From: an uncultured Gammaproteobacteria bacterium
GTDB lineage: Bacteria > Pseudomonadota > Gammaproteobacteria > DRLM01
DNA: 64,000 nt
Reading direction: 5' to 3'
NCBI GenBank assembly: GCA_963729605.1
Contig: CAVSNY010000007.1
Span: 960,001-1,024,000 of the forward strand
In this document: positions 10,326 through 53,466 of the stretch, one piece after another
Position numbering within the stretch: position 1 is the stretch's first letter
Layout of the letters: every line of letters starts with the position of its first letter
Notes under the pieces: generated by a model
Database searches by the model: none
What the model was told of the DNA's origin: nothing
The model's input: the letters and a program-made list of their open reading frames with translations, nothing else
Position numbers and translations under genes: made by a program

Positions 10326-11897
10326 ATGAGCGGACCCCTACAGCCCGGCGTGGATAGCCCGGTGTTATCTTCCGGCGAGCAGACGCCCGTTTGGCGTTCG
10401 CCGCTGGTGCTGGCCGGCCTGTTGGTATTGGCGGTGCTGGCGCTGTATTGGCAGACGGTGTTGTCGATGGAGGCGATCTGGTCGCGCTCCGAAACCTTTA
10501 CCCACGGCTATTTGATCGCGCCGATCAGCCTCTTTTTGATTTGGCAGCGGCGTAAAATCCTGGCCGCCATCGCGCCGACGCCGGATCCGTGGGGCTTGCC
10601 GGTGCTGTTCCTGATCGGCGTGGTGTGGCTGCTGGCCCATTACGCCAGCGTCATGGTGATCGAACAACTGGCCATGGTGGCGATGATCGCGGCCACGGTG
10701 TGGACGGTGCTCGGGCGGCGCATGTTCTGGGCGATGCTCTTCCCCTTGGCGTTTTTGTTTTTCGCCGTGCCGGTCGGCGAGGAATTGATCCCGCCCTTGA
10801 TGGATTTCACCGCCGATTTCACCGTGGCGGCCTTGCAGTTGAGCGGCATTCCGGTGTATCGCGAAGGGACTTTTTTCGAAATACCCAGCGGCCGCTGGTC
10901 GGTGGTCGAAGGTTGCAGCGGGGTGCGTTACCTCATCGCGTCGGTGACCCTCGGTTGTTTGTACGCTTACCTCACTTATCGCAGTCCGCTGCGGCGGACG
11001 GTGTTCGTGCTCTTGTCGATCATCGTGCCGATCATCGCCAACGGCCTGCGCGCTTATATGATCGTGATGATCGCCCATCTCAGCGACATGAAGATGGCGC
11101 TGGGCGTCGATCATTTCATCTACGGCTGGGTGTTCTTCGGCCTGGTGATGCTGCTGTTGTTCTGGGCGGGCTCGTTTTGGCGCGAGGATCATCTGGAACC
11201 GGCCGGCCCCTCGGCGGTTCGCGCGAATACCGTCGCCGCGTCCGGCCACCGCTCGCCCTTGGCGGTGGCGGGGGCGGTGTTCCTCTTGCTGGCGGTGTGG
11301 CCGGTGCTGGGATACGTGAGCGCGGCGCGTGACACCGCCGTGACTAACATCCATTTGGCGATGCCGTCACCCGCCGCCGGTTGGCAGGCCGGCGAGCCTC
11401 TCACTGAATGGCGGCCGCGCTATTTGGGTACCGATGCGTCCGTGCAACAGAGTTACGCGCGCGAGGGAAAACAGGCGATGGTGTATCTGGCGTATTACCG
11501 CCATCAGCGTCAGGGCGCGGAGTTGATCAACTCGCAGAACGTGCTGGTCAAGCAGAAAGATCCGGTATGGCGGCAGGTGGCGGACGGGCCGCGGGAGATC
11601 GCCGTCAACGGCAAGCGCATCCAAGTGCGCGAGGGTAAGCTGCGTTCCGGGCAACAGGATTTGCTGGTGTGGCATTGGTATTGGATGGACGGCGTCTACA
11701 CCACCAATCATTATCTCGCCAAATTCTGGGAGGCCAAGGCCAAGCTGTTCGGCGAGACCGGCGACGCGGCCGCCATCATCGTTGCGGCCGAGATCGGCGA
11801 GCAAGGACCGGATGCCGCGGCGGCGGTATTGAACGAATTCGTGGCCGGCATGGAGCCGGCCATGCGCGCCAGCCTGGAGAATGTCGCCAATGACTGA
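10326..11897 (+). CDS. xrtA: Exosortase A fused to C-terminal EpsI domain
   Basis: Eight-TM core with catalytic Cys (VVEGCSGVRY), Arg (ANGLRAY) and His (VDHFIYGW); C-terminal EpsI-like domain (YRHQRQGAELINSQN, LLVWHWYW). Confidence 0.95.
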   Translation: MSGPLQPGVDSPVLSSGEQTPVWRSPLVLAGLLVLAVLALYWQTVLSMEAIWSRSETFTHGYLIAPISLFLIWQRRKILAAIAPTPDPWGLPVLFLIGVVWLLAHYASVMVIEQLAMVAMIAATVWTVLGRRMFWAMLFPLAFLFFAVPVGEELIPPLMDFTADFTVAALQLSGIPVYREGTFFEIPSGRWSVVEGCSGVRYLIASVTLGCLYAYLTYRSPLRRTVFVLLSIIVPIIANGLRAYMIVMIAHLSDMKMALGVDHFIYGWVFFGLVMLLLFWAGSFWREDHLEPAGPSAVRANTVAASGHRSPLAVAGAVFLLLAVWPVLGYVSAARDTAVTNIHLAMPSPAAGWQAGEPLTEWRPRYLGTDASVQQSYAREGKQAMVYLAYYRHQRQGAELINSQNVLVKQKDPVWRQVADGPREIAVNGKRIQVREGKLRSGQQDLLVWHWYWMDGVYTTNHYLAKFWEAKAKLFGETGDAAAIIVAAEIGEQGPDAAAAVLNEFVAGMEPAMRASLENVAND

Positions 11898-17631: not shown

Positions 17632-17634
17632 GGC

Positions 17635-23170: not shown

Positions 23171-24103
23171 GTGAGTGATCTCTGGGAGAAAATCGAAAAA
23201 AATCTCTGCTATTACGGCCGGGCCGCGGCACGCACCGCGCGCGGCGCGTGGTGGAATATGCGCCGGCCTTGCGCGGTCAGGCCGGTGTTCGTGGTCGGGT
23301 GCAGCCGCGCCGGCACCACCTTGGTCTACAAGACCTTCTCCGAGGCGGAGGATCTGGGCAGTTTGCAACGCGAGACGCACGACTTCTGGGCCGAACTACA
23401 TCCGCTGGCGGCCCATGGTTGGGACAGCCATGCGCTCGCCGCCGCGGACGCCGCGCCGCGCGACCGCGACATCGTCACGAGTTATTTCTACGCCCACACC
23501 GGCCGCACCCGCTTCGTGGACAAGAACAACCAGGGCGGTCTGTGCGTGCCTTATTTGCACGCCTTGTTTCCGGACGCGCAGTTCGTCTACGTCAAGCGCA
23601 GTCCCGGCGACAACATCAATTCCTTGATCGAAGGCTGGCGCAAGCCCGAGGAATTCGCCACCTGGTCCGAGCATCTGCCGGTGCCGGTGGCGGTGGACGG
23701 CGGCCGCTACACGCGCTGGTGTTTTTTCCTGCCGCCGGGCTGGCGCGATTATGTGAACGCGCCGCTGGAAGACGTCTGCGCGCTGCAATACCGGACCATG
23801 AACGAGGCGCTGCTGCATGGCCGTACCATCATCCCCGCGGCGCAGTGGACCGAGATCGTCTACGAAGATTTATTGCGCGATCCGGTGGCGGGTTTTCAAC
23901 GCGCCTTCGCCGCGGCGGGCGTGAATTTTTCGCCGGCCGTCGCCCGCCACTGCGCCAGCGTGCTCGCCACGCCCTACAACGCCTTCTCGGAAATCCGTCC
24001 CGACAAATGGCGCGACGGCCGTAACCGCGAGCGCATCGAACGCGTGCTGCCCTCGGTGGAGGCGGTGGCGCGCGCCATGGGTTATCCGCCCGCCGGGGCG
24101 TGA
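23171..24103 (+). CDS. PAPS-dependent sulfotransferase family protein
   Basis: 5'-PSB VFVVGCSRAGTT, VDKN, 3'-PB FVYVKRSPGDNINS, IVYEDLLRDP. Confidence 0.85.
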   Translation: MSDLWEKIEKNLCYYGRAAARTARGAWWNMRRPCAVRPVFVVGCSRAGTTLVYKTFSEAEDLGSLQRETHDFWAELHPLAAHGWDSHALAAADAAPRDRDIVTSYFYAHTGRTRFVDKNNQGGLCVPYLHALFPDAQFVYVKRSPGDNINSLIEGWRKPEEFATWSEHLPVPVAVDGGRYTRWCFFLPPGWRDYVNAPLEDVCALQYRTMNEALLHGRTIIPAAQWTEIVYEDLLRDPVAGFQRAFAAAGVNFSPAVARHCASVLATPYNAFSEIRPDKWRDGRNRERIERVLPSVEAVARAMGYPPAGA

Positions 24104-34467: not shown

Positions 34468-35403
34468 TCACTTCTTGTTATTGCGGGCGAGCCGGCGGAA
34501 GGCGCTCAGTTCGCCCAGGTTGGCCGCGATACGCAACAGGTAATAGCGGGTCTGCGGCCAATAGAGTGAAGTGACTAGGCGCCAGAGGTAGACGGCGAAC
34601 TTGCGCAGAATATATTTCGGCACACCCTCGATCCCGCCGCTGCGCACCAGGGCGGCGGAACGGGAACGCAGGAAGCTCTTACGAATGAGATACCCAAGCT
34701 GCAAGCGCGATTGATCCACGTAATGGTATTGCACCATGTCCGGCAGGTAACGCAGAGTCACTCCCGCCGCCCGCGCCTTGAGCAAAAAATCGCTGTCCTC
34801 GCCGCCTTGCAGATCGTGGCCGCGGGGCCCCAACTCGGTGGAAAACCCGCTGACCAGATCGAACACCCGCCGCCGCACCACGATATTGCCGCCGCTGGGC
34901 AAGGGGCCTTGCTCGTCCAGCGCTCGCGTGACAACGCCCAGGTTGTAATAAGGCATGGGTGAGGGAAAGATGCCGAACTCGCCGCGCTCATGTACCCACG
35001 TGGGCTCGCTACCGTCCCAGGCCGGATAGAGCCGGCCGCAAAAAATGTCCTGCGCCGGATAGCGGAGCAGCCCCTCGGCGACGGCCTGCAGAAAGTGTTT
35101 CTCCACGGTCTGATCGTCGTCGATGAAGGCGGCGGCGCTGGTGTGCAACTCGCGGATGGCGCGATTCAAGGCATGCGATTTCCCGGGCGCCGGTTCCGCC
35201 ACCCAGCGCAGCGGCAGCCCGCCGTTGCCCTCGCGCGCGCGTTGCGCCAGAAAATCCGCGGTGCCGTCGCGACAGGCGTTGGCCACCACGAGGATATCGA
35301 CTTGCGTGTCGCGCGGACGCAAGGCCTGTGCGAGCGAGTCCAGCGTCTCGCGCAATAAATCCACCCGGTCATGGGTGCAGATGACGACGGTGTAGGCACT
35401 CAT
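34468..35403 (-). CDS. GT2 glycosyltransferase
   Basis: VVICTHDR, VVAN, GKSHALN, FIDDD, GGEDSD; start set at 35403. Confidence 0.88.
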   Translation of the reverse strand: MSAYTVVICTHDRVDLLRETLDSLAQALRPRDTQVDILVVANACRDGTADFLAQRAREGNGGLPLRWVAEPAPGKSHALNRAIRELHTSAAAFIDDDQTVEKHFLQAVAEGLLRYPAQDIFCGRLYPAWDGSEPTWVHERGEFGIFPSPMPYYNLGVVTRALDEQGPLPSGGNIVVRRRVFDLVSGFSTELGPRGHDLQGGEDSDFLLKARAAGVTLRYLPDMVQYHYVDQSRLQLGYLIRKSFLRSRSAALVRSGGIEGVPKYILRKFAVYLWRLVTSLYWPQTRYYLLRIAANLGELSAFRRLARNNKK

Positions 35404-36389
35404 CGTGGCTGGGTGAATCGGCGCCAGTGCGTGGCGAGGCGGTTGTGCAGACGGTAGGCGCCGCGCAGCGCGAGTGGCAGCGGCCGGGCGTCGGTCGCAA
35501 GCGCGTAGCCGTGTTCGCGCAACGTTGCGCCGGTGGCGGCTTCGAAGATTCGAATTTGCCGCGGCGTCATCTCCGTACGCCATTTTTCGGCATTGTCGGC
35601 CTTGATGCCTTGCTTGAGCAGCGGCGTTTTACCGCCGTCGGTCTGGGCCTTGCGGTAGTTGAGCAAGTCGTCGCTGTATTCCTCGCCGAGAAAGGCGCAC
35701 AGCCGTCGCAAGCTGGCGGCGGGATCGGCCACCAAATCTTCGTAACGCAATTCATGGTACACATCGGCGGACAGGGCACGCCCATATTCCCGGCCGGTTT
35801 CCACATACTGCTGCCAATACTTGGCGGCGTGGTAAGTGTTGTAGACATGAAAGTCGTACTTGCGCGCGAACATGGAGAGGGCCACGTCGCGCCCGTCGCG
35901 GATCAGGTGGATCATCTGCGCGTTGGGAAACATCTCCAATATGAGTGGAATCTGCAAGACGTAATAAGGCGTCTTGTCCCCCCAGCGACGTTTGCCTTCG
36001 CCCTCCGCGTTCAAGGTGAAGAAGGCGTCGAAGAGTTGCGGTAGCGTCCGGCAGCCGGCCTCCGCCAGGCGCGCGGCGAGCATGTCCGCGTCGAACTTCA
36101 GTCCGTGCAAGTCGGTTTCGATGAATTCAGTGCTGCGGCGATGCATCTCGTGCAGTACCCGTTTGATGTTTTCCACGGCGCTTAAGTCGCCGTAGATCCC
36201 CTGCTGCCTGTACATGGGCACGAAGAAATGAGATTCGCCGGTAGGCAAGGACAAAGCCGGATGCGCCCGCAACATGTATTGCAATAGCGTCGTCCCGGAA
36301 CGCGGGGCGCCGACGATGAAGAAAGGTCCGCGGCGCGGCGCAGCGGTCGCGCGCGCGGATTCGGTGTGCTGATCGGCAGGCATAGTCAC
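35400..36389 (-). CDS. PAPS-dependent sulfotransferase family protein
   Basis: FIVGAPRSGTTLL, ESHFF, WGDKTP, IHLIRDGRDVALS, LRYEDLVADP. Confidence 0.92.
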   Translation of the reverse strand: MTMPADQHTESARATAAPRRGPFFIVGAPRSGTTLLQYMLRAHPALSLPTGESHFFVPMYRQQGIYGDLSAVENIKRVLHEMHRRSTEFIETDLHGLKFDADMLAARLAEAGCRTLPQLFDAFFTLNAEGEGKRRWGDKTPYYVLQIPLILEMFPNAQMIHLIRDGRDVALSMFARKYDFHVYNTYHAAKYWQQYVETGREYGRALSADVYHELRYEDLVADPAASLRRLCAFLGEEYSDDLLNYRKAQTDGGKTPLLKQGIKADNAEKWRTEMTPRQIRIFEAATGATLREHGYALATDARPLPLALRGAYRLHNRLATHWRRFTQPR

Positions 36390-41191: not shown

Positions 41192-43153
41192 TCAGCCCTC
41201 CTTCCTGATGCCGGCTGTCGCGACGAGTTTACCCAACAACCAGCCCCGCGGTGGAACGATCGGTGGCGTGTCGTTCTTGCCATCCATCGTCGTCCACGTG
41301 AACGCAGGGGATGTCTTGCCCTCCCAGCGCAGCGGCCGCGCCTCTTGGCCGGAATTCACGATCACTATCTCATGACCCGCGCCGTTCCACAGCCAGGCGA
41401 CGTGTAAGCGATCATCGCCCGGACTCGGACAGGGTGCGCGTTGGGCGAGCGGCACGGCCTCCGGATTCGCGCCCAACAGGCTCGGCGGCAGGCCGAGACC
41501 CTCGTCCACCGCGGCGAGCATGGCGCGGGCCAGCGCCGCGCGGTGTTCGCCGGCGGGCGCCGCCGCGCAGCGGTGGTAATAGGCCTCCACGAGGAAGGCG
41601 ATGGCATGGTCGTGTTTGGTGCCGGACCAGGTCTGCATGAGGTCCAGCCGGTCGATCGCGGCGGTGGCCTCGCGGATGACGGCCTCGAATTCACCGTCGC
41701 CGAAGCGGCGCTGATAACGCACGAGGTCCCAGATGTTCACGGGAAGATATTGATGAGAGAGTCCCCTCAAGGTCAGCGCGCGGTCGATATAGCCGCCGGG
41801 CATCACCAGGCGCGGGTAACGCGCCTTGATGCGATGCAGGTATTTGGGGATCAGACGCTGCCAGGTGAGCCGCTTGAGTGCGCGCAGCGGCAACGGCAGG
41901 CGGGCGGCGCGCTCGGGCGGGAGCAGCGTGAGCTCGATCAGCCGGAACAGCAAACGATAGAGCGTCTCGGCGGGGCGCTGCATCACCACGGCCCGGCTGG
42001 CGCTGAGCCCCGAGCGCAGTAATTCGGCGTGACGCTCATCGCCGCTCGCCTGCTGATAACGGCTCAGCGCCAGGCTGTTGTCGAGATGGGTATTCAGCAC
42101 CAGCATATTGCTGGGCGATTTGCCGAAGGCGCGGCTGCGCACCCAGCGGAACGGAGAGAGCGCCATGGACTGTTCGGATTTTTCGAGGGTGTCGTGCAGG
42201 AACCACGTGTGTTGCGCGACCTGGTCCGTGTGTCCGGCGAGGAACGCGGCGGCGCGCTCCAGCGCACCTCGCACCGTGGTGTCCCGCGGTGTTTCTTCGA
42301 GGGCCGCGGCCAGCAGATACACGCCGCCCGCGTGCAGGCGGAGATGGCTTTCCATCGTGGTGGTCCACTCGCCGTGATACCAGCCGCCGTCGGCGCGCTG
42401 GCGCGCGATGATGGAGACGACGAGCTGCGCCTTGAACAAGGTGTAGAGGGCCTTCCGCGTCGCGTGCTCGAGGCCCGACAGAATCAGATACAACGAAAAG
42501 GCGTCGAGCTCGTCGCAGATGCGCCAGCGCCGCGGGAATGACCAGTGGCGGCTGTAGACCGAGCCGTGGACGAGGTGGGCGTAGACATCGGCGGGACGCG
42601 TATAGGCGGTGTGCGAGCCGTAGACGAAATACGGCTGCGTCTCCAGCGTGTTCAGCCGTTCCAGGGACGTGGCCAGTTCGGCGGCGGCATCGGCCGGGAA
42701 TCGCCAGATGACCCAATCCAGCGTGTGGCCGGGCTGCGCGTGCAGCGTCAACGCCAGGCGCTCGGGCGTGGCCTGCAGCGCGATGATCTCGGCCGGTTCT
42801 TCGGCGAGTAAATGGCCGTCGTTGTCGAGACGGCGGCTGACGGGCGCGCGCGGTATCCAATACGTCGGCCGGTCGGTGGCGGCCGGCGTAAGCAGCCAGC
42901 CGCCGCCGCGGCAGGCGTCCAGCCGATACGCGCCGTTCAGGGACAGACTCAAGGCGCCGGCCTGCGCGGGGCGGTAACGGCCGAAGCAGCAGCGTGCCGC
43001 GAGGGTGTCGAAGTCGTCGCGGATGATCTCCAGCGTGTCGCCGTCCCGGTAACGCCGTCTCACCAGGGCATCGGTGGCGACCAGGCGTTCACCCGGGTCC
43101 GCCGGTCGGGAAAACCAGTCGTCGAGATCGAGGGCAAGATCGTTGTGGGTCAT
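41192..43153 (-). CDS. Uncharacterised ~650-aa protein with (alpha/alpha)-barrel-like C-terminal half; candidate D-glucuronyl C5-epimerase-like
   Basis: Clean ORF in the operon between flippase and methyltransferase. QRADGGWYHG; PSNMLVLNTHLDNSLALSRYQQASGD...LLRSGL. CDS call is confident, function is speculative. Confidence 0.6.
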   Translation of the reverse strand: MTHNDLALDLDDWFSRPADPGERLVATDALVRRRYRDGDTLEIIRDDFDTLAARCCFGRYRPAQAGALSLSLNGAYRLDACRGGGWLLTPAATDRPTYWIPRAPVSRRLDNDGHLLAEEPAEIIALQATPERLALTLHAQPGHTLDWVIWRFPADAAAELATSLERLNTLETQPYFVYGSHTAYTRPADVYAHLVHGSVYSRHWSFPRRWRICDELDAFSLYLILSGLEHATRKALYTLFKAQLVVSIIARQRADGGWYHGEWTTTMESHLRLHAGGVYLLAAALEETPRDTTVRGALERAAAFLAGHTDQVAQHTWFLHDTLEKSEQSMALSPFRWVRSRAFGKSPSNMLVLNTHLDNSLALSRYQQASGDERHAELLRSGLSASRAVVMQRPAETLYRLLFRLIELTLLPPERAARLPLPLRALKRLTWQRLIPKYLHRIKARYPRLVMPGGYIDRALTLRGLSHQYLPVNIWDLVRYQRRFGDGEFEAVIREATAAIDRLDLMQTWSGTKHDHAIAFLVEAYYHRCAAAPAGEHRAALARAMLAAVDEGLGLPPSLLGANPEAVPLAQRAPCPSPGDDRLHVAWLWNGAGHEIVIVNSGQEARPLRWEGKTSPAFTWTTMDGKNDTPPIVPPRGWLLGKLVATAGIRKEG

Positions 43154-43161
43154 GGTGCGGC

Positions 43162-44622
43162 TCAATTCGCAAGTCGGAGTAGTTTGCGCCAGCGCGCGGT
43201 TTCGGCGGCGAGCGCGGGCAGCGGCAAAAACAGAAAGGCCGCCGCGTACACCACGGCGCCCGTGCCGCCGACGATCAGGAGATACCAACCCGGCTGCGCC
43301 TGCGCCATGCCGTCCGGCAACAGGAAATGGCTGCCCAGCACGGTCATGACCAGCAGTGCATTGAGTGCGAGGCCCGGCGCCAGCGCGGCGCCCAGTTCGC
43401 TGAGCCGGCTGCGAAAACAGCGGGTCGCGAGAAAATACATGTGCGTGGTGGCGTAGAGCTGGCTCATGACGATGGCCCAGGCCACGCCTTCGAGGCCCCA
43501 GCGCAGGCCGATCAAACAGCCCGCGATGACCAGGCCCAGGGTGATCAATTGCACGACGAGTTCGCGGCCCAAGCGGTTACACGCGGCAAGGACCGCGCCG
43601 CAGGGGTGGCCGACGCAATAAAGCAGCCCCGCGACCGCGAGGATCTCGAGCGGCGGGCCCGCCGCGGCCCACTTTTCGCCATAGACGAAGACGATGAAGG
43701 GTTCGGCGCACCACCACAGGCCGACGTAAAGCGGCAAGGTGTAGACGGTCAGCAGCATGACGGTGCGAAAGAAGAGATATTTGATCTTGTCCGGATTGTC
43801 CTGCTCGCTGGCCATGGCGCGGAAGACTGGCTGATAGACGGCGCTGCTGACCGTGGAGAACGGCATCTTGCCGAGGCTGTCCGCCTTGTTGAACAGGCCG
43901 ACCGCGTGCGCGCCCGTCAGCCGGCTGATGATGACGTTGCTGCTCTGCGCGCGCAGGTAGCTCACGAGGTCATTGGCCGACACCTTCGCCCCGTAACCGC
44001 CGACGCGCCTGGCGGTCGCGGTGTCGAAGCGAAATCGCGGGCGCAGCGGTGTGAGCCGGCGCAGGAGGATCAAATTGAGGAAGGCGCCGGCGAGGCCGCC
44101 GAACACCAGGCTCCACACCCCGAAGCCGGCCCAGGCCAGGATGACGCTGGTCAGTCCCGTAAAGGACGTGCTCACGATGGCGACGATGGTGCGTTCGCGG
44201 AAACGCATCTCGCGATGCAGCCAGGAGTTGTGGATGGTGATCAGCGGGCGCAGCAGAAAGTAAAGCGCGGAGGTGCGTAGTAAATCACGATACAGCTCAT
44301 CGTCGAACCAGACGGCGAAATACGGGGCGATCACATAGAACAAGGCGTAGAGCGCACTACCGACCGTGAGCTGCATCGTGAAGACGACGTGAAAGTCGCG
44401 TTCGCTGGCGTCCTTGGCGCGGACCAGGGCCTGGCCCATGCCGCCGCCGGTGAGCAGGCTGGCCACACCCGTGAAGGCCTGGATCGTGACGATCATGCCG
44501 AAATCGGCGGGGACGAGCAGGCGCGCGAGGATGATGCCGACGATGAATTGCAACACCTGATTGCCGGCGCTGCCGGCCACCAGCCATTTGGCGCCGCGGC
44601 GTATGGATTCACCTAAATTCAT
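43162..44622 (-). CDS. wzx: Wzx-family polysaccharide flippase (WzxC-like)
   Basis: About 12-14 TM helices; IILARLLVPADFG, GFGVWSLVFG, AVGLFNKA, VYGEKW. Confidence 0.9.
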   Translation of the reverse strand: MNLGESIRRGAKWLVAGSAGNQVLQFIVGIILARLLVPADFGMIVTIQAFTGVASLLTGGGMGQALVRAKDASERDFHVVFTMQLTVGSALYALFYVIAPYFAVWFDDELYRDLLRTSALYFLLRPLITIHNSWLHREMRFRERTIVAIVSTSFTGLTSVILAWAGFGVWSLVFGGLAGAFLNLILLRRLTPLRPRFRFDTATARRVGGYGAKVSANDLVSYLRAQSSNVIISRLTGAHAVGLFNKADSLGKMPFSTVSSAVYQPVFRAMASEQDNPDKIKYLFFRTVMLLTVYTLPLYVGLWWCAEPFIVFVYGEKWAAAGPPLEILAVAGLLYCVGHPCGAVLAACNRLGRELVVQLITLGLVIAGCLIGLRWGLEGVAWAIVMSQLYATTHMYFLATRCFRSRLSELGAALAPGLALNALLVMTVLGSHFLLPDGMAQAQPGWYLLIVGGTGAVVYAAAFLFLPLPALAAETARWRKLLRLAN

Positions 44623-44817: not shown

Positions 44818-47800
44818 TCACGCATCGGGGCGCCGGGGCGCATGCCCCGCGAACCCGAGCGGGTTTGCGGGGTGCGTGCGTACGGTTTTTCCATGGGAAA
44901 TTTCCTCGATGTATATGCCGCCCTCGGCGGGATCCAACCACCAGCGGAGGGTGCGGCGAGGCCCCGCCACTTCCACGCCCAGCCGGGAGCCGTTTTCCAG
45001 CAGCCGGGTGCGGTGAGGCGCCTGTTCCCCCACGAAAGTCGGTAGCAGCACGACCAGGAAACTATCTTCCGCGCGGGGTGTGGCCGGCATGATCTCCACC
45101 CGCCAGGCGCCCGGCTCGGCATTTTTACGCCGACCGAGCTTTTTAGCGACACCTTCGCCGTAATTATTACCGTCCACCCAAAATTCCTGGCCCGCGCCGC
45201 CTACCGTGGCGATCAACGGGTCTTTGGGGAGCAGTACGCGGGCGTCGAGTTGCCCCGCGGCACGCCCCGGCGGCTTGGTGACGGGCGGAGGAACGATGAA
45301 GCCGCCGTCGCGGAGCACGGGTTTTTCCAGGGTATGCAACAGCCAGCGTTTGGGGAATCCGGGTTCCGTGGCGATGACGCGATCGAAGATCACAACGACG
45401 TCGTCCACCTGATCGTAGCCGAAGGTGCGCGTGTATTTTTCGACCCGCCGCGTGCGATGGGAAAAAGTGTCTTGGCCGGACAGTTCGTTGGTGTAGGCCG
45501 GGGTGAGGTCGGCCGCCGCCACGGTGAGGCCGTCCTGATCCAGCAGGAGTTGCTCGATTTTGCCGGTGTGGTAAATCTCCCGCTTACTCTCCCATTCCGC
45601 CAAATCCAGTGGACCCGCTTCCACGCCCCAGCCCGAGCCGATGCGGCGCTGGCCGCCGTCGTTGGCGAGGGGGCGCGGTTCTTTGTCGCCGCGCGCCGGC
45701 ATGGGGACGGTGTCCTCCGGGTCGGTGACGGTCACCACGTTGTGGGCGATGGTCTGGTACGCGTAATTCAGGTGGTGGTCGGTGCCGTAGCCGGCGCCGT
45801 AGAAGCCGCTGTCGATGGCCAGCGCGCCGCCTTTGTAAATGGTGAAGGCGCCTTGGTCCAGGTGCACGTGCGACCAGTAATTGTCGCCCGCCTTGAAGGT
45901 GACGTACGTGGAATCCTTGTCCCAGCCCTTGCGGGCGACGATCAATCCCAGACCGTCGAAGTGCTTGGTCAACGGCAAGCGTTGGGCGGCCTGCGGATCG
46001 TATAAGCCGGGGTCGGTGAGCGGACCCCACGGCCAACTAGTGGGGGTGGGCGCCGCGGGCGGGCGGCGCAGGCTGTACGCGGCCGGGTGTCGGTATTCCA
46101 GCGCCAGCGCCGCTTGATCGGGCACGATGCGGTCGAAGAAGCTGGCGTCGCCCCAGCGGAAATGGGTGCCGTCGGGGCGGGTGCGGTACACGAGAAAATC
46201 GAGAAAGCCGCGGAGGCCCGGTTCGGTTTTGAATAAATCCTCGCCGGTGGCGTGGCGCCACATGGCGGGCACCTGATAAATCGCTTGGCCGATGCCGATG
46301 CCGACATATTCGCCGCCTTCGTGCCAGCCGCCGTTTTGACCCATGATCTGCCGCCACACCGGCAGCACGCGGTTCTTCCACAAGTCCTGGGTGAAGGCCA
46401 TGATCGCGTCGGCGCGCGGGTCGTCGCCGTAGGCGGCGATGGCGCAGGCCATCAGCGCCTGGAAGGGGCTGTTGTAGAGGATCACGTTGTAGGGCGAGAG
46501 CCGTTCCTTGCGGATGTAGCGGATTTGATAGTCGCAACCGTCGAGCAGCTTGGCGCGCAATTGGCTGCGTTGTGGTTCGCTCCAGGCGTCGTACAGCCAG
46601 TCGTAGGCCATGGCCAGGGGTTTGACTTGCAGATGGCCGCGCCACTGGAAATCCAAGACCAGCAGGCGCTGATGCAGCAGGTCCAGATCCTGGCTGCCGG
46701 GGTCCAGCACGGCCATCAATACCACGGCCTCCAGATCGCCCTTGCCGCCGGCCGCCCGGCGGCTTTGCACCCGCATGAACTGGGGATTTTCATCACGCAG
46801 CCGGACGATCTCCGCGGCGCTGGGCGCCGGCAGGCGCGGGTGAGTGAAACGAAAGTTGGTCAGAGCGACCGGCATCAGCGTCTCCGGCGCCGGGAGTTGC
46901 GCCAGACGGCTTTCGTCGAGGGGCCGTTCCAGAGGCGCGGAAATGATTATCGAGGCGACAGCGATCAGCGCCAACGCGACGCCCCCCGCCGCCGTGGCCA
47001 GCGAGAGTTGGTGGCGGCGGGGAGGGCGCGACGGCGGAGGGGGAATGTCGCCGGCGTGGCGCGCCAGCCATGCCCAGCACGCGGCCCACGCGAGCAGGCC
47101 CAGCACGGCGTCGGTGATGTCCGGATAGCGGCCGGGTAGCCGCTGCTGCAACCATTCCAGGCCCAAGGCGTAAATGAACAACAGACCGCCTCCCAGCCAG
47201 GCCGCGCGCCGCGTCGAGGCCGGACGCGCCAGGGCGGCCAGCCAGGCCAGCGCCGCGTAAGGCCAGATGGCGGCGATGATGTCCGGTAAACCGGACAAGG
47301 TCTGCATCTGGCCCTTGAAGGGGATCCAATTGATCAGCAGCAGCGGGCCGTGGGGGTCGCTGACCCGCAAATTGTCCAGGCTGTGGGCAAACAGCAGAAG
47401 CAGGGCGGCCAGCCACGGCAGGACGCGCGGCGGTCTGTTGCGCAGCGCGGCCCACAACAACAGACCCGCCCCGGCGCCGGCGATGGCCTCCAACGACAAC
47501 TGCCGACCCACGATCGGCACCTTCAATACCAGCACCGCCGCGATGAAGAGGACGAACAGTTTGGTCGTGTTCAGGCGCGGCTGCGCCACCGCGGTGAACA
47601 CCAGACCCAAGCTTGCGACATGGAGGGCATAGACCGCGCCTTGGGCGAGCGAAAAAGGCACGGCACCGGTGAGGGTCCGCGCCAGCGGGCTGAGTCCCTG
47701 ACGCAGGTTGCCCAAATCCAGCGAGGGTACCCAGGGGCTGAGTTGGGCCAGCGCCCAGAGGCCCAGCGTGATGAGGCCCAGATCAGCGATGGGACCGGGC

Positions 47801-48291
47801 AGAAACCAGCGCTGGCGCAATCGGTGCAAACGGCTGCCGCGAAACTGCTGGGCATTGAAATAACCCGCCAGCACGGCGCCTAGGAAGGTACCGGTACCGT
47901 TGAGCGCGGTATCGAGCGGGGATGACACTCTCTGCGGGAGATAACTTTGCAAATATTCCAGACCGAGGCTGAGCGAGGTTCCGCATAACGTGGCGAGCGC
48001 GAGCGTGGCGCCGCCGCCGAATCGACCTCGCCACCACAGCGCCAGCAATAAGCCGAGGGGCACATAAACCATCAGGTTGGTAACGACGTCACCGCGCGAG
48101 ACATGGGCCGGCCAGTTCAAAGAGATGAAGGTGTGGAGATTGCCGCGTTGCCAGTCCCAGCCGCTCAAGGGAAACAAAGTCCCATAGATGAGCAGTAATA
48201 AATAGGCGCAGCTCAGTTTCCAATACAGAGGTCCGCGGGAGTCGGCACGAGCATGCGATGGCGGGGAGTATTGAGTCACGGTCTCGCTCAT
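44818..48291 (-). CDS. VanZ-like multi-TM domain fused to heparinase II/III-like polysaccharide lyase domain
   Basis: N-terminal ~450 aa with two VanZ-like repeats (DVVTNLMVYVPLG...LEYLQSYLPQRVSSPLD; LEWLQQRLPGRYPDITD). C-terminal ~700 aa with GGWHEGGEY, HVHLDQGAFTIYKGGALAIDSG, YQTIAHN, ANDGGQR, FDRV...KRWLLHT, GAWRVEI. Start set at 48291. Confidence 0.8.
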   Translation of the reverse strand: MSETVTQYSPPSHARADSRGPLYWKLSCAYLLLLIYGTLFPLSGWDWQRGNLHTFISLNWPAHVSRGDVVTNLMVYVPLGLLLALWWRGRFGGGATLALATLCGTSLSLGLEYLQSYLPQRVSSPLDTALNGTGTFLGAVLAGYFNAQQFRGSRLHRLRQRWFLPGPIADLGLITLGLWALAQLSPWVPSLDLGNLRQGLSPLARTLTGAVPFSLAQGAVYALHVASLGLVFTAVAQPRLNTTKLFVLFIAAVLVLKVPIVGRQLSLEAIAGAGAGLLLWAALRNRPPRVLPWLAALLLLFAHSLDNLRVSDPHGPLLLINWIPFKGQMQTLSGLPDIIAAIWPYAALAWLAALARPASTRRAAWLGGGLLFIYALGLEWLQQRLPGRYPDITDAVLGLLAWAACWAWLARHAGDIPPPPSRPPRRHQLSLATAAGGVALALIAVASIIISAPLERPLDESRLAQLPAPETLMPVALTNFRFTHPRLPAPSAAEIVRLRDENPQFMRVQSRRAAGGKGDLEAVVLMAVLDPGSQDLDLLHQRLLVLDFQWRGHLQVKPLAMAYDWLYDAWSEPQRSQLRAKLLDGCDYQIRYIRKERLSPYNVILYNSPFQALMACAIAAYGDDPRADAIMAFTQDLWKNRVLPVWRQIMGQNGGWHEGGEYVGIGIGQAIYQVPAMWRHATGEDLFKTEPGLRGFLDFLVYRTRPDGTHFRWGDASFFDRIVPDQAALALEYRHPAAYSLRRPPAAPTPTSWPWGPLTDPGLYDPQAAQRLPLTKHFDGLGLIVARKGWDKDSTYVTFKAGDNYWSHVHLDQGAFTIYKGGALAIDSGFYGAGYGTDHHLNYAYQTIAHNVVTVTDPEDTVPMPARGDKEPRPLANDGGQRRIGSGWGVEAGPLDLAEWESKREIYHTGKIEQLLLDQDGLTVAAADLTPAYTNELSGQDTFSHRTRRVEKYTRTFGYDQVDDVVVIFDRVIATEPGFPKRWLLHTLEKPVLRDGGFIVPPPVTKPPGRAAGQLDARVLLPKDPLIATVGGAGQEFWVDGNNYGEGVAKKLGRRKNAEPGAWRVEIMPATPRAEDSFLVVLLPTFVGEQAPHRTRLLENGSRLGVEVAGPRRTLRWWLDPAEGGIYIEEISHGKTVRTHPANPLGFAGHAPRRPDA

Positions 48292-48428
48292 GGGCCGGAT
48301 GTCCCGGACAAGGCTGCTGTCCGCTCCATTCCCCATCCCCTGACGGCGCGAGAGTTTCGAGGATGATTGCGGTATGTGGCGGTGAGGGTCATTATTCCGG
48401 ATGAAATTGTATCAGAGGTGTTTTTGCG

Positions 48429-49229
48429 ATGGTGGATGATTACACGGTACGCAAACCCGTATCGCGGTGGCGGGCTTGGTGGGCGGGGCTGGTGTTAACC
48501 ACGTTGAGCGTGAGCGGTCAGGCGCCGGCCGATACCTTGCCCGACACCGTGGCCCGTCTCAAGGCCAGCGTGGTGGGGGTGGGCACCCTGGAGCGCACCC
48601 GCCGGCCGCCGGCCCAGTTGCTCGGCACGGGTTTCGTGGTGGGCGACGGCCGTCATGTCCTGAGCAATGCGCATGTGGTGGCCGGCAAGCTGGATAAGGA
48701 CAAACGGGAAAGCCTGGCGGTGTTCGTCGGCAGCGGGCCGGAGCCGACGTTGCGGCTGGCCACCAAAGTGGCGGAGGACCTCGAACACGATTTGGTGTTG
48801 CTGAAAATTTCCGAGGCGCCGCTGCCGGCGCTGCGGCTGGGGGATTCCGACGCGGTACGTGAAGGAGAGATGTACGCCTTCACCGGGTTTCCCATCGGCG
48901 CGGTGCTGGGTTTGTATCCGGCCACCCATCGCGGCATGATCGCGGCGATCACCCCCATCGCCGTCCCCCTCAATACCGCCAAGCAACTCTCCCCGGATCT
49001 GTTACGGCGCCTGCAAGCCAATTATTCGGTATTTCAATTGGACGCAACGGCCTATCCCGGCAACTCGGGCAGCCCGCTTTACGATACGGCGACCGGCACG
49101 GTGATAGGCGTGATGAATAAAGTCTTCGTGCAGGAAAGCAAAGAGAACGCGCTGCAAAAGCCGAGTGGGATTTCGTATGCGATCCCTATCAATTACGCCA
49201 AGGGTTTATTGAGCAAGGCCGGCCTGTGA
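48429..49229 (+). CDS. Exported trypsin-like serine protease (S1C-like, no PDZ)
   Basis: Signal peptide; catalytic triad SNAHVV, HDLVLL, YPGNSGSP. Confidence 0.9.
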   Translation: MVDDYTVRKPVSRWRAWWAGLVLTTLSVSGQAPADTLPDTVARLKASVVGVGTLERTRRPPAQLLGTGFVVGDGRHVLSNAHVVAGKLDKDKRESLAVFVGSGPEPTLRLATKVAEDLEHDLVLLKISEAPLPALRLGDSDAVREGEMYAFTGFPIGAVLGLYPATHRGMIAAITPIAVPLNTAKQLSPDLLRRLQANYSVFQLDATAYPGNSGSPLYDTATGTVIGVMNKVFVQESKENALQKPSGISYAIPINYAKGLLSKAGL

Positions 49230-50520: not shown

Positions 50521-51597
50521 TCAATTCGCGGTGTGCCGCCGGCCGTCGTGTTCGGTCGTGGGAAAGGCCACCAGGTGCTGCGCGGCGATGCGGATGCCCG
50601 CCTCTTGACCCTCGGCGTAATCGAAGTGGCTGGGAAAGAGCGACAACACGATGGTGCCGCCGGGCAGGCGCATGGTGTACAGGATCTCGGCGCCCTTGAA
50701 GGTCTTGCGGAGGATGCGGCCGCGCAGCGGACTGGCCGGGTCGTGCACCACGTCGTCGGGGCGTAGCAGCACTTCCACCGCGGTGCCCGGCGGCCACAGA
50801 TAGGCGCGGTCGCCGGGGATGATGCCGAGGTCGGTCTCGATGCTGTCGGCGGTGCGCACCGTGCCCGGCAGAAACACGCCCTGGCCGATGAAATCCGCCA
50901 CGAAGCGGTCGATGGGTTCGTGATAGATATTGCTGGGCGTGTCCCATTGCACGATGCGCCCGGCGGACATGATGCCCACCACGTCGCCCAGGGCGAAGGC
51001 CTCTTGCTGATCGTGGGTCACCATCAGCGCGGCGATGCCTTGATCCTTGAGGATGGCGCGCACCTCGCCGCCCAGGCGCGCGCGCAGATCCACGTCCAGG
51101 TTGGAGAAGGGTTCATCCATCAAGATCAATTCCGGCCGTGCCGCCAGGGCGCGGGCGAGGGCGACCCGCTGTTGCTGGCCGCCCGACAGTTCGTGGGGAT
51201 AACGGTCGCCGTAACCCTCCAGCCCCACCACTTTCAGCAGGCGGGCCGCGGTGTCGCGGCGGGCGGCGTTCGACATGTCGCGCAGGCCGAAGCAGATGTT
51301 GCGGGTCACATCCATGTGCGGGAACAGCGCGTAGTCCTGAAACACCATCCCCAGGCGGCGTTTCTCGGGGGGCAGGGTGTAACCTGGGCGCGAGGCGGTG
51401 ACGCCGCGCAGCAGGATTTCACCCTGGCTCACCGGCTCGAAGCCGGCGATGGCGCGCAGCACGGTGGTCTTGCCGCAGCCGCTGGGGCCGAGCAGGCAGG
51501 CGATGCTGCCCTTGTTGATGTGCAGGGAGAGCGCGCGGACCACGGGATTGCGGTCGTAGCGGCATTCGATGTCTTTGATTTCCAGCAGCGCGTTCAC
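50521..51597 (-). CDS. ABC transporter ATP-binding protein (FbpC/PotA-like, Fe3+/polyamine type)
   Basis: [44 protein letters not shown]-terminal TOBE domain; GTG start at 51597. Confidence 0.88.
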
Positions 51598-51672
51598 GGT
51601 TTTGACGATGCGTTGATTCGGCAGGACACAATAGTGGGAAAGCGCGCGACTGTCCAATCCCGGGGCGGTGAT

Positions 51673-52778
51673 TCACGCCATCAGCGCCACGCTTTTGATG
51701 AGGGCGTACACCGGCAGACCCCCGCGCAGCGCCAGGGCCTGCGCGGATTTTTGGGTGATGCGCGCCAGCAGGGTCTGGCCCCCTATGTCGAGTTTCACCA
51801 TCACTTGTCCCGGCTGGCCGGCGGGCGCCAGTTCAACCAGCGTGGCCGGGATGATATTGAGCAGGGTGCTGCGGCGTGGCGGTTCGAGGCAAAGCGCCAC
51901 GTCGCGGGCGTGGACGCGCAGCCGCAGCGTCGCGCCGATCGCGAGATGTTGCCGAGCGATGCTGAGCTGCTGGCCGGCGACGTCGAGATAACTCAAGTGA
52001 TGTCGCCTCGTCATGGCCTGCCAGCGTGGCCTCGATCACCGCGCCGGCGTCGTCGCGCTGGGCCAGTGACAGATCGACGCGTGCCAGCAGCGTGTCGAGC
52101 GGGCCGTAGGCGGCGAGACGGCCCTCTTCCAGCAGTAATAAATGATCGGCGCTGGCCACCAACTCGTCGAGGCTGTGGCTCACGTACAGAATCGGAATGG
52201 CCAGCGGTCTCGCGGAGGAGCTTGAAGTAGGGCAGGGTGTCTTGTTTGCGGCGCTGATCGAGGGCCGCGAGCGGCTCGTCGAGCAGCAGCAAACGGGGTT
52301 GCGCGAGCAGGGCGCGGCCCAGCGCCACCCGCTGCCGCTCGCCGCCGGACAGCGAGGCGGGTGCGCGTTCGAGCAGGGTTTCGAGATCCAACCAGCCCAC
52401 CACTTGCTCGAAGCTCAACCGCCGCTCCGCGAGCGGCACGCGCCGATAACCGTATTCCAGATTGCCGCGCACCCGCAGATGGGGAAACAGCCGGCTGTCC
52501 TGAAACACCATGCCCACCCCACGCTGATGCGGTGCGACGAAGATCCCGCGCGCGGTATCTTGCCAGCAGTGTTCGCCTAACTGTACGGTGCCCCGGCACT
52601 GTTTTTCCAAGCCGGCCAAACAACGCAGCAAGCTGGATTTGCCCGCCCCGGAAGGACCGAAGACACCTACCACGCCGCCGATCGTGGCTTGCCAGTCGAC
52701 GTCCAAAGAAAACTCGCCGAGGCGGAGCGTGAGTCGCGCCGAGAGTCTTTCGATTTGAGCGGGGAGTGCCGATGTCAT
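51673..52778 (-). CDS. modC: Molybdate ABC transporter ATP-binding subunit, frameshifts near 52210 and 52015
   Basis: [38 protein letters not shown]-terminal Mop/TOBE ([16 protein letters not shown]...YALIKSVAL); follows modB. Confidence 0.88.
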
Positions 52779-52782
52779 ACGG

Positions 52783-53466
52783 TCAGCGCGCGGCCTTGGC
52801 GTTGGGCTGACGGGTCAACGTGTAGATCGCCAGCAAGGCGATGAAGGAGAACACCAGCAAGCCGGCGGATAACAGATGGGCCTCGCGATATTGCAGGGAT
52901 TCGACGCGATCATAAATGGCGATGGACAACACCTGGGTCTGGCCGGGGATGTTGCCGCCTATCATCAATACCACCCCGAATTCGCCGACGGTGTGGGCGA
53001 AGCCCAGCACCGCGGCGGTGAGAAAACCGCGCCGCGCCAGCGGCACCGCCACGCTGAAAAACCGGTTGAGCGGCGAGGCCCGCAAGGTGGCGGCGGCCTC
53101 CAGAATATCGTCGCCCACTTGCGCGAAGGCGGTTTGCAGCGGCTGCACCACGAAGGGCAGCGAATAAAGCACCGAGCCGATCACCAGGCCGGTGAAGCTG
53201 AAACTGAGGGTGCCGCCGGTGAGGCTGGCCCAGGGTCCGCCGAGCATTCCTTGCGGGCTCAAGGCCAGCAGCAGATAAAAGCCGAGCACGGTGGGCGGCA
53301 GCACCAGCGGCAGCGCCACCAGCGCCTCGACCGGCGTTTTAAGCCGGCCGCGGCCGCGCGCCAGCCACCACGCCAGTGGCGTGCCGAGCACGAGCAGTAT
53401 CAGCGTGGTGACGGCGGCGAGCTGCGCCGTGAGCCAGAGCGATGACCAGAGAGCGGCGGTATCCAT
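52783..53466 (-). CDS. modB: Molybdate ABC transporter permease
   Basis: LPLVLPPTVLGFYLL, SLPFVVQP, GFAHTVGEFGVVLMIGGNIPG.T. Confidence 0.93.
   Translation of the reverse strand: MDTAALWSSLWLTAQLAAVTTLILLVLGTPLAWWLARGRGRLKTPVEALVALPLVLPPTVLGFYLLLALSPQGMLGGPWASLTGGTLSFSFTGLVIGSVLYSLPFVVQPLQTAFAQVGDDILEAAATLRASPLNRFFSVAVPLARRGFLTAAVLGFAHTVGEFGVVLMIGGNIPGQTQVLSIAIYDRVESLQYREAHLLSAGLLVFSFIALLAIYTLTRQPNAKAAR

Follow-up and report, generated by a model that had tools for sequence, protein, structure and literature searches.

What might a protein do that joins a VanZ-like membrane module to a heparinase II-like lyase domain, and whose gene stands among genes for making an exopolysaccharide (EPS)? 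The question is raised by a minus-strand gene in a window of 64,000 nucleotides from an uncultured Gammaproteobacteria bacterium (assembly GCA_963729605.1, contig CAVSNY010000007.1, positions 960,001 to 1,024,000; coordinates below are counted within this window). An earlier note, made from the letters of the window alone, had seen in it an inner-membrane-tethered lyase that trims or releases the cell's own glycan. We propose, at roughly even chances, that the product is a bifunctional inner-membrane enzyme facing the periplasm, which would act on an EPS of the exosortase A (XrtA) system that is linked to undecaprenyl pyrophosphate (Und-PP), contains uronate and is probably sulfated, with both the lyase activity and the substrate putative.

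The fusion itself is real and far beyond chance. The gene is one intact open reading frame (ORF) on the minus strand, as clean and free of frameshifts as the earlier note had described it. In Pfam, VanZ matches two stretches of the protein (64.9 bits, cut-off 30.1), and DUF4962 (42.5 bits, cut-off 28.7) and Hepar_II_III_C (37.1 bits, cut-off 24) match as well. The NCBIfam scan returned matches to HepB, HepC and vanZ models only, with vanZ_1 (NF037970) at 23.1 against a cut-off of 20 and no curated XrtA-associated family model for this protein. As to where translation begins, an alternative start at 48291 (Met16) would yield a product of 1157 aa, exactly as long as P0001, its nearest homologue in the databases (96% identity); a convincing ribosome-binding site was found at neither start, for the 1172-aa or the 1157-aa form, which leaves the start codon ambiguous. 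Scanning for promoters and terminators turned up sites inside the ORF only, at about chance level (one promoter-like site against 0.8 expected, seven terminator-like sites against 3.6 +/- 2.1).

In the predicted structure, the C-terminal part adopts the (alpha/alpha) toroid plus beta-sandwich fold that the earlier note had expected. Heparinase II of Pedobacter heparinus (HepB, polysaccharide lyase family 21 [PL21]; 2FUQ, 2FUT, 3E7J) has the same three-part toroid and beta-sandwich fold and is the best sequence relative among solved structures: phmmer aligns residues 575-1125 with residues 133-674 of chain 2fuq_A at E=3.8e-47, and a profile built from 61 family members reaches E=1.3e-58. Other lyases follow at a distance (Atu3025 oligoalginate lyase 1.8e-13, heparinase III 1.8e-4), which makes PL21 the best match. 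Foldseek with the full-length model likewise ranks 2fuq, 2fut and 3e7j first (E 1e-25 to 1e-26, TM-score on target 0.67-0.71; 2fuq_A E=2.6e-26 and 0.69, 2fut_A 0.71), at 22-23% identity over about 750 columns. The next matches, named after their PDB titles, are exoHep, the Atu3025 alginate lyase, human dermatan-sulfate epimerase 1, the Dp0100 alginate lyase and GAGases II and VII, and further ones include a PL33 lyase, heparinase III, PL17 lyases and a PL40 ulvan lyase. All the motifs that the earlier note had compared with Pedobacter heparinase II are present and align in the expected order, namely HEGGEY (position 672), (S)HVHLDQGAFTIYKGGALAIDSG (822), TIAHN (862), ANDGGQR (891) and KRWLLH (996), together with GGAGQEFWVDGNNY and GAWRVEIMP.

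Most of the heparinase II active site is retained. In the phmmer alignment Tyr257 corresponds to Y677 and His406 to H823, while its Zn ligands His408, Asp425 and His451 correspond to H825, D842 and H865. Among the 61 members, which are 49-81% identical, Y677, H823, D842, H865 and Y846, the second Tyr and partner in a double-Tyr motif, are invariant and H825 is at least 90% conserved; H499 and H672 are invariant too. Such a double-Tyr motif has been discussed for the toroid plus beta-sandwich fold (PMC8006597), and His202, Tyr257 and His406 are given as the active-site residues of heparinase II (PMC10656541, PMC7904915).

The toroid segment also aligns with those of Atu3025 (3A0O, E=3.5e-8) and BIexoHep (6LJA, E=4.4e-4), whose catalytic Tyr365 and Tyr390 fall on Y677. 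The candidate Tyr and His of the earlier note thus hold up as Y677 and H823, but the third residue, His202, has no His counterpart. In the heparinase II alignment Y621 stands opposite His202; in the other two, Ile619 stands opposite the catalytic His311 and His337. The segment equivalent to that of His202 reads SPYNVILYNSPF, with Y616, N617, Y621 and N622 invariant, and between H499 and H672 no His occurs among the invariant or at least 90% conserved columns of the 61 members; the alignment of the family profile to heparinase II begins at profile position 662, outside the His202 region. Taken together, the sequence comparisons mark the domain as a distant PL21-like enzyme with a variant active site. 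The lack of a His202 equivalent suggests, by analogy with Tyr-based lyases, a Tyr-only mechanism that would be confined to one uronate epimer.

The membrane part is more elaborate than the earlier note had supposed. That note counted about 12 transmembrane (TM) helices and two VanZ-like repeats, whereas a Kyte-Doolittle scan and the helices of two AlphaFold models (full length, mean pLDDT 84.8 and pTM 0.69; residues 1-470, pLDDT 87.7 and pTM 0.83) agree on 13 predicted TM helices, and profile-profile comparison resolves three repeats of four helices, the middle one degenerate, plus an anchor helix. In this comparison (hhalign, with slices of a diverse alignment of 49 sequences that are 18-41% identical to the protein), repeat A matches repeat B with 97.8% probability (E=1.1e-12) and the middle block with 93.7% (E=1.9e-7). 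Repeat A carries D83, N87, E127-x-x-Q130, P134, R136 and D142-x-x-x-N146, and repeat B carries E394-x-x-Q397, P401-G-R403 and D406-x-T408-D409; in the middle repeat the ExxQ and Asp motifs are gone, but a periplasmic loop is still conserved (P201, P204, S205, D207, G209). Across the 49 sequences D83, E127, Q130, D142, D406 and T408 are invariant.

The five loops richest in Lys and Arg (103-107, 161-177, 299-304, 371-377 and 426-446) all lie on the same side, and the predicted topology therefore has the N-terminus and the basic loops in the cytoplasm and the C-terminal domain in the periplasm, which agrees with the inner-membrane tether of the earlier note. It would also mean that in repeats A and B the conserved motifs lie where the helices meet the periplasm. 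The accessible part of the supplement of PMC12419801 independently predicts that the fused domain projects into the periplasmic space. Structure searches with the membrane module were uninformative: Foldseek found nothing in the PDB at E <= 0.001 (best E=0.2), and the best VIA-align wide matches (Z 7.7 over 83-98 residues) were unrelated helical proteins within the noise expected of helical bundles.

What such repeats may do has become clearer recently, and the suggestion of the earlier note that the fusion might hint at a function for VanZ domains has been overtaken by papers of 2025-26 that report or predict lipid-linked-oligosaccharide (LLO) pyrophosphatase activity. As far as the available sections of PMC12419801 go, VanZ belongs to a superfamily of enzymes acting on lipid head groups, and VanZ-1 is linked to genes for non-peptidoglycan EPS (flippase, WaaL-like, Wzz and Wzc proteins) and predicted to act on flipped, lipid-carrier-linked EPS head groups, with an Asn in helix 2 (H2), ExxQ in H3 and DxDDxxxN in H4 as its motifs. 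A preprint of September 2026 reports LLO pyrophosphatase activity for Escherichia coli YfiM and for the yeast VanZ-family protein Llp1, and cites Li et al. 2025 for the proposal that VanZ hydrolyses Lipid II, with H87, E128, D143 and D147 essential in the Enterococcus faecium protein.

The module resembles this group (VanZ, Llp1, YfiM) in scoring above the cut-offs of the VanZ and vanZ_1 profiles and, in part, in the motifs of its four-helix unit, with Asn (H2), ExxQ (H3) and D-x-x-x-N (H4), and its setting among EPS, flippase and chain-length-determinant genes is the one that PMC12419801 describes for VanZ-1. In repeat A the motifs read N87, E127xxQ130 and S139xxD142xxxN146, so that in H4 the last Asp and the Asn of DxDDxxxN are kept and the first two Asp are not. 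Repeat B has E394xxQ397 and D406xTD409 and no H2 Asn, and the middle repeat has none of the VanZ-1 motifs. Set beside E. faecium VanZ, N87, E127, D142 and N146 are spaced 40, 15 and 4 residues apart against 41, 15 and 4 for H87, E128, D143 and D147 (a comparison of spacing, not an alignment); by that spacing the Glu and the first Asp are kept in repeat A, and the NCBIfam vanZ-A match is weak (E=0.052). Unlike VanZ-1, the protein has three tandem repeats, an H4 that reads S-x-x-D-x-x-x-N and a fused lyase-like domain. As VanZ-family proteins are reported or predicted to be LLO pyrophosphatases, the N-terminal part probably does more than tether the lyase domain and is active in its own right.

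Hundreds of proteins from proteobacteria share this architecture. VanZ, DUF4962 and Hepar_II_III_C occur together in 118 of the 120 best database matches (1097-1215 aa), the two exceptions being one protein without a DUF4962 call and one without VanZ; the databases name them only "VanZ family protein" or "DUF4962 domain-containing protein." With one genome taken per species, relatives are encoded in 203 of 231 candidate stretches, and 80 loci were kept from these 203 for comparison, all of them from beta- and gammaproteobacteria wherever a taxon is named. Cultured carriers include Thauera terpenica 58Eu, Thauera sinica, Aromatoleum evansii KB740, Methyloversatilis thermotolerans 3t and Azohydromonas sediminis.

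Fusion is the rule in this family, and the rare split forms mostly retain their partners side by side; homologues are thus not normally divided between two genes, an outcome that would have spoken against the earlier reading. None of the findings by which the earlier note would have considered itself refuted was fully borne out. The match begins before query residue 150 in 60 of the 80 loci. The other 20 comprise ten uninterrupted ORFs of 1058-1413 aa with a diverged membrane part, six genes cut by a contig end and four short ones. One short gene (L001) has the appearance of a frameshifted fused gene. Two are TM-anchored and lyase-only, with a separate VanZ-like gene beside them in divergent orientation (L013) or 2 kb upstream (L044), and the last (L027) is an ORF of about 743 aa that encodes the lyase part alone and has no VanZ gene in the DNA available around it. 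In L019 (9872-14502, plus strand) the match is divided between ORFs of 779 and 764 aa with a 4-nt overlap; either the locus has a real two-gene form, whose membrane protein is longer, or the assembly contains a frameshift. There and in L053 and L046 the family match spans 4.3-4.9 kb instead of 3.4 kb. A separate observation concerns L083:4236-6569 and L084:3842-6307 (both minus strand), which encode proteins of 777 and 821 aa whose N-terminal VanZ module is related to the one described here and whose C-terminal ~400 aa have no Pfam match; one of them adjoins a large tetratricopeptide repeat protein, the other sugar-nucleotide transferases. It seems that various periplasmic domains can be mounted on this membrane module.

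Is the fusion tied to XrtA systems beyond this window? In a sample of 301 genomes of the class (tallies include the unpublished genomes G039 and G141; related genomes are not independent), a strong match to the lyase domain occurred in 11, with an open frame of 1157-1256 aa in ten and a truncated gene in the last (G292). An XrtA above cut-off was present in 10 of these 11 genomes against 38 of the 290 others, which bears out the link to XrtA loci for which the earlier note had proposed a survey; counting any match to the family profile, the figures were 23 of 26 against 25 of 275. Stand-alone triple-VanZ genes in six other genomes were not consistently within EPS loci and add no support for an EPS role.

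Using the window's own proteins as tblastn probes on the 80 loci, we recovered few counterparts (Wzx 18/80, deacetylase 15/80, glycosyltransferase family 2 14/80, XrtA 1/80), since EPS genes diverge fast and the flanks extended over 10 kb only, and these counts were replaced by Pfam scans of neighbors (88 ORFs in 10 diverse loci) and the genome-level co-occurrence given above. Among the scanned neighbors with a link to XrtA were PEP-CTERM proteins, a sigma-54 regulator with histidine kinase, a priming transferase, Wzx or Wzm/Wzt, and the XrtA-associated pair of AMP-ligase and pyridoxal phosphate-dependent decarboxylase. Others belong to sulfur metabolism: a CysQ-like phosphatase, an SLC13-type permease, a PAPS_reduct-domain protein (CysD-like), an ATP-sulfurylase/adenosine 5′-phosphosulfate (APS) kinase and a sulfotransferase. 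By tblastn, at least one gene of the sulfate-activation or sulfotransferase type lies within 10 kb in 34 of 80 loci; among the 41 loci that extend over 20 kb or more, the number is 21. Such sulfur genes nearby suggest that many carriers make a sulfated polymer. We also observed, directly upstream of the fused gene and in divergent orientation, ORFs of 320 aa (L028:9001-9963, minus strand) and 150 aa (L031:9451-9903, minus strand) without Pfam match; they recur in 14 and 12 of the 80 loci, and the named ones are mostly Thiobacillus/Hydrogenophilales and Thauera/Aromatoleum.

The window itself is a canonical XrtA/PEP-CTERM EPS locus, which settles the placement in a biosynthetic locus that the earlier note had given the gene. 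Twelve XrtA-system TIGRFAM models are matched (TIGR03027, 03007, 03016, 03015, 03006, 03019, 03087, 03109, 03088, 03108, 04063 and 03097), all above their curated cut-offs except TIGR03027, the model of the export protein, whose gene is truncated where the window ends. Besides this protein, the locus encodes a chain-length determinant, the TIGR03016 outer-membrane protein, the system ATPase, a deacetylase, a FemAB-like protein, three system glycosyltransferases, an exosortase A-EpsI fusion, an amidotransferase and a WaaL/Wzy-like "O-glycosylation ligase." At a distance of 33 kb from xrtA, where the locus is variable, the fused gene heads a minus-strand run that continues with a Wzx flippase, a 698-aa ORF and a WbsX glycosyltransferase, followed by a deacetylase, a sulfotransferase and a sulfatase-family membrane protein (Table 1). 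The terminator scan found no terminator-like site in the gap between the fused gene and wzx.

Table 1. Coordinates, within the window, of the fused gene, its parts and the neighboring genes discussed in the text.
Feature	Coordinates	Strand	Residues	Basis or remark
Whole ORF	44818..48336	-	1172 aa from first ATG	Uninterrupted (ORF list)
VanZ/Lipocone repeat A	47857..48234	-	~35-160	TM1-4; Pfam VanZ match 44-158
Middle degenerate VanZ-like repeat	47443..47805	-	~178-298	TM5-8; hhalign to repeat A
VanZ/Lipocone repeat B	47059..47424	-	~305-426	TM9-12; NCBIfam vanZ_1 match 357-411
TM13 signal-anchor helix	46942..47001	-	446-465	Follows K/R-rich loop 426-446; predicted to carry the chain across to the periplasm
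Helical (alpha/alpha) toroid domain	46057..46899	-	~480-760	Pfam DUF4962 match 572-730, DSSP, Foldseek, alignments; holds invariant YNVxLYNSP segment (616-624) and H672-E-G-G-E-Y677
Beta-sandwich domains	44857..45984	-	~785-1160	Pfam Hepar_II_III_C match 789-876, strands of model
Active-site and metal-site block	45742..46323	-	Y677, H823, H825, D842, Y846, H865	Alignment to heparinase II
Exosortase A fused to EpsI	10326..11897	+		TIGR03109 365.9 bits, cut-off 208; Pfam
Second sulfotransferase	23171-24103	+		Pfam Sulfotransfer_3, E=1.6e-19
Sulfatase-family protein	32367-34463	-	698 aa	Domain at residues ~212-578; between the two sulfotransferases
Sulfotransferase in minus-strand run	35400..36389	-		Pfam Sulfotransfer_3, E=1.1e-41
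ORF directly downstream of Wzx	41192-43288	-	698 aa	No Pfam or NCBIfam match; relatives in 5/80 loci
Wzx-type MOP flippase (multidrug/oligosaccharidyl-lipid/polysaccharide superfamily)	43162..44622	-		195 bp downstream of the fused gene, same strand
Trypsin_2 trypsin-like periplasmic protease	48429-49229	+		Divergent from the fused gene; relatives in 13/80 loci

Several neighbors deserve a remark of their own. The sulfatase-family protein shows weak NCBIfam matches to arylsulfatase and choline-sulfatase models, far under cut-off, and could be an EPS-editing sulfatase or an LtaS/EptA-type transferase. A protease of the same kind as the one divergent from the fused gene also stands, in two other genomes, beside stand-alone or differently fused multi-VanZ genes (L082:1134-1976 and L083:3452-4279, both minus strand), which may reflect a recurrent pairing of VanZ and protease. 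The ABC transporter at 50521-53466 was considered for sulfate uptake and dropped, as its best match is the molybdate transporter ModB. At 16001-18000 the GC content rises to 72.7% against ~64% elsewhere in the window; two minus-strand ORFs there (16485-17699 and 17653-18249) have no family match and may be spurious, or the stretch may encode a low-complexity or PEP-CTERM-type protein.

How might the two modules work together? In the bifunctional reading, Wzx would deliver Und-PP-linked repeat units at the periplasmic face, where the Wzy-like polymerase would extend them. The acidic and polar residues of repeats A and B may engage the pyrophosphate head group of the Und-PP-linked EPS and perhaps cleave it, as reported for Llp1 and YfiM and proposed for VanZ, while the tethered PL21-like domain would cut the uronate-containing, probably sulfated glycan by beta-elimination, with Tyr677, supported by Tyr846, as putative base and acid; the carboxylate would be handled by His823 together with Asn617 or Asn622. 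As an outcome, the lipid-linked polymer would be trimmed, released or cleared and the carrier recycled, a housekeeping role like that of AlgL, which would be exerted within a Wzx/Wzy pathway while the polymer is on its lipid carrier.

Other loci for EPS biosynthesis also encode enzymes that cleave glycans, among them AlgL (PL5), PslG, PelA, BcsZ and ExoK. The likeness to these lies in a proposed periplasmic or surface enzyme, encoded with the synthesis genes, that would cut its own polymer for clearance, release or size control; the folds and families are unrelated, and none of the five is known to be fused to a membrane module that handles a lipid carrier. AlgL, moreover, serves a synthase-dependent pathway, unlike the locus described here with its Wzx, Wzy-like and polysaccharide co-polymerase (PCP) genes. 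Heparinase II is a soluble, secreted catabolic enzyme; the present protein differs from it in low identity, in the missing His202 counterpart and in being tethered to a 13-TM module in a biosynthetic locus.

A number of observations weigh against the bifunctional reading. On the lyase side, no His stands opposite heparinase II His202, Atu3025 His311 or exoHep His337 in three pairwise alignments, and the accessible parts of PMC10656541 and PMC7904915 state that mutating a His of this type abolishes or strongly cuts activity in relatives; the HepB equivalog NF045571 scores 187.2 bits against a cut-off of 600, and the protein is therefore not a heparinase II orthologue. On the membrane side, Asn takes the place of His and of Asp at two of the four positions described as essential in VanZ (by spacing only), and several VanZ-like "Type 1/Type 2" bacterial proteins were inactive on a eukaryotic test substrate, according to the available part of the 2026 preprint. 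As for the substrate, roughly every second locus lacks a sulfur gene in the surrounding 10 kb, the window holds no nucleotide-sugar dehydrogenase (the nearest lies ~90 kb off on the same contig) and the genome's APS kinase is on another contig, outside the locus. One genome that is 100% complete (G068) carries a full-length fused gene (1157 aa) and no exosortase A match at E <= 0.001, and the many Thauera and Thiobacillus loci are kin and not independent.

Some of these points feed rival explanations, of which the nearest keeps a lyase acting on the cell's own EPS and reduces the VanZ repeats to an anchor or scaffold, docking for instance to Wzx, Wzy or the PCP, with no catalysis on the lipid carrier. 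The motif-free middle repeat, the Asn residues of repeat A at the His87 and Asp147 positions of E. faecium VanZ (again by spacing only), the single TM anchor without fused VanZ in the relatives at L013, L027 and L044 and the inactivity of several VanZ-like proteins in vitro on the test substrate (2026 preprint, accessible part) would all fit a passive role, but such a role hardly explains why six residues inside the membrane module are invariant at 18-41% identity, why the VanZ gene stays beside the lyase in split forms or why triple-VanZ proteins stand alone in other genomes, most of which have XrtA. We regard a mere anchor as rather unlikely. The opposite reduction, in which the periplasmic domain is a non-catalytic module for glycan binding, adhesion or signaling that might sense or hold the EPS chain for length control, takes its cue from the missing first catalytic His and from the supplement of PMC12419801, whose accessible part files the fusion under adhesion/extracellular matrix and signaling. 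Against it speaks the pattern of conservation among the 61 members, where the catalytic Tyr and its double-Tyr partner, the second His and two metal ligands never vary and the remaining ligand is conserved to at least 90%, as is typical of an active site that has been maintained. We consider this explanation improbable.

Equally improbable, in our judgment, is that the domain is not a lyase but a polymer-level uronate C5-epimerase, or another modifying enzyme, that edits nascent EPS in the manner of human dermatan-sulfate epimerase 1 (DS-epi1; 6HZN). This Golgi enzyme of eukaryotes, which acts on its polymer during biosynthesis and before sulfation, shares the toroid plus beta-sandwich fold, the DUF4962 N-domain, the double-Tyr motif (Y677 and Y846, invariant here) and the metal site; it ranks ninth among the Foldseek matches (6hzn, E=1e-15, TM-score on target 0.54), and a biosynthetic locus with sulfotransferases would suit a glucuronate-to-iduronate editor. 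The accessible part of PMC8006597 adds that all catalytic residues of DS-epi1 are conserved in heparinase II and that minute changes turn lyase into epimerase, but also that the critical His205 of DS-epi1 equals heparinase II His202, for which the family has no counterpart. The sequence likeness is, moreover, far stronger to heparinase II (E=3.8e-47), whereas DS-epi1 is absent from the matches of both phmmer and profile searches. A catabolic or competitive lyase that degrades foreign glycosaminoglycan (GAG)-like polymers, for food or against the matrix of neighbors, would be in keeping with the closest characterised relatives (heparinase II, exoHep and Atu3025), all of them catabolic enzymes, the latter two exolytic and Atu3025 a member of PL15. 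Related DNA does occur in runs from matrix-rich habitats such as sludge, biofilter and wetland (labels only, with word shares <=0.53, and habitat labels are not used as evidence here); no RNA run was listed for the gene, although one run bears the ambiguous label "METAGENOMIC RNA-Seq." Yet the outer membrane would separate the domain, anchored in the inner membrane, from foreign polymers, the Pfam scan of neighbor ORFs showed no uronate-catabolism family and the gene is embedded among biosynthesis genes and tracks XrtA, all of which makes this the least probable of the alternatives, and a very improbable one.

The bifunctional reading builds on much that is already known: both domain families, the newly described chemistry of VanZ, and the fusion itself, which is widespread and tabulated without interpretation in the supplement of PMC12419801. 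There, in the accessible part, the "DUF4962-helical" and "Hepar_II_III-b-sandwich" fusions of VanZ are listed with 17 loci each. The main text of that Lipocone paper contains no "lyase," "DUF4962," "exosortase" or "PEP-CTERM" and has "hepar" in its reference list only, and architecture strings such as "VanZ+DUF4962" were not found in its supplements. Nor did the literature searched yield a published account of the fusion as a conserved lyase-type active site in XrtA loci. New here are the finding that the fused periplasmic domain keeps the Tyr/His/metal site of heparinase II while lacking His202, the triple-repeat build of the membrane module and the quantitative link of the fusion to XrtA systems and sulfate activation.

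A bolder version, which we put forward as a doubtful extension, would make the family the missing termination and quality-control enzyme of XrtA Wzx/Wzy EPS assembly, and the XrtA EPS of many beta- and gammaproteobacteria a uronate-containing, sulfated, GAG-like polymer. In such a scheme the VanZ repeats would cleave the pyrophosphate of the Und-PP-glycan at the periplasmic leaflet, so recycling the carrier, and the tethered lyase would set or reset chain length; the GAG-like, sulfated nature of the polymer is proposed because of the heparinase II ancestry and the recurrent neighbors for 3′-phosphoadenosine 5′-phosphosulfate synthesis and sulfotransfer.

If the bifunctional reading is right, one protein would couple the handling of the undecaprenyl-pyrophosphate carrier with cleavage of the polymer built on it, and the fusion would serve as a natural "Rosetta stone" for the substrate of VanZ-1 in Gram-negative bacteria. 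The release of Wzy-made polymers from their lipid carrier is an unsettled step, and the family would offer a candidate enzyme for it. Thauera, Competibacteraceae and Thiobacillus are floc formers, and a sulfated, uronic-acid EPS would then be found in floc and biofilm formers of environmental and technical importance; with cultured carriers at hand, the family can be tested now. Sulfated GAG-like polymers have been reported chemically in granular sludge (PMC10483923, accessible part), and should the GAG-like reading hold, the fused gene would provide a genetic handle on them.

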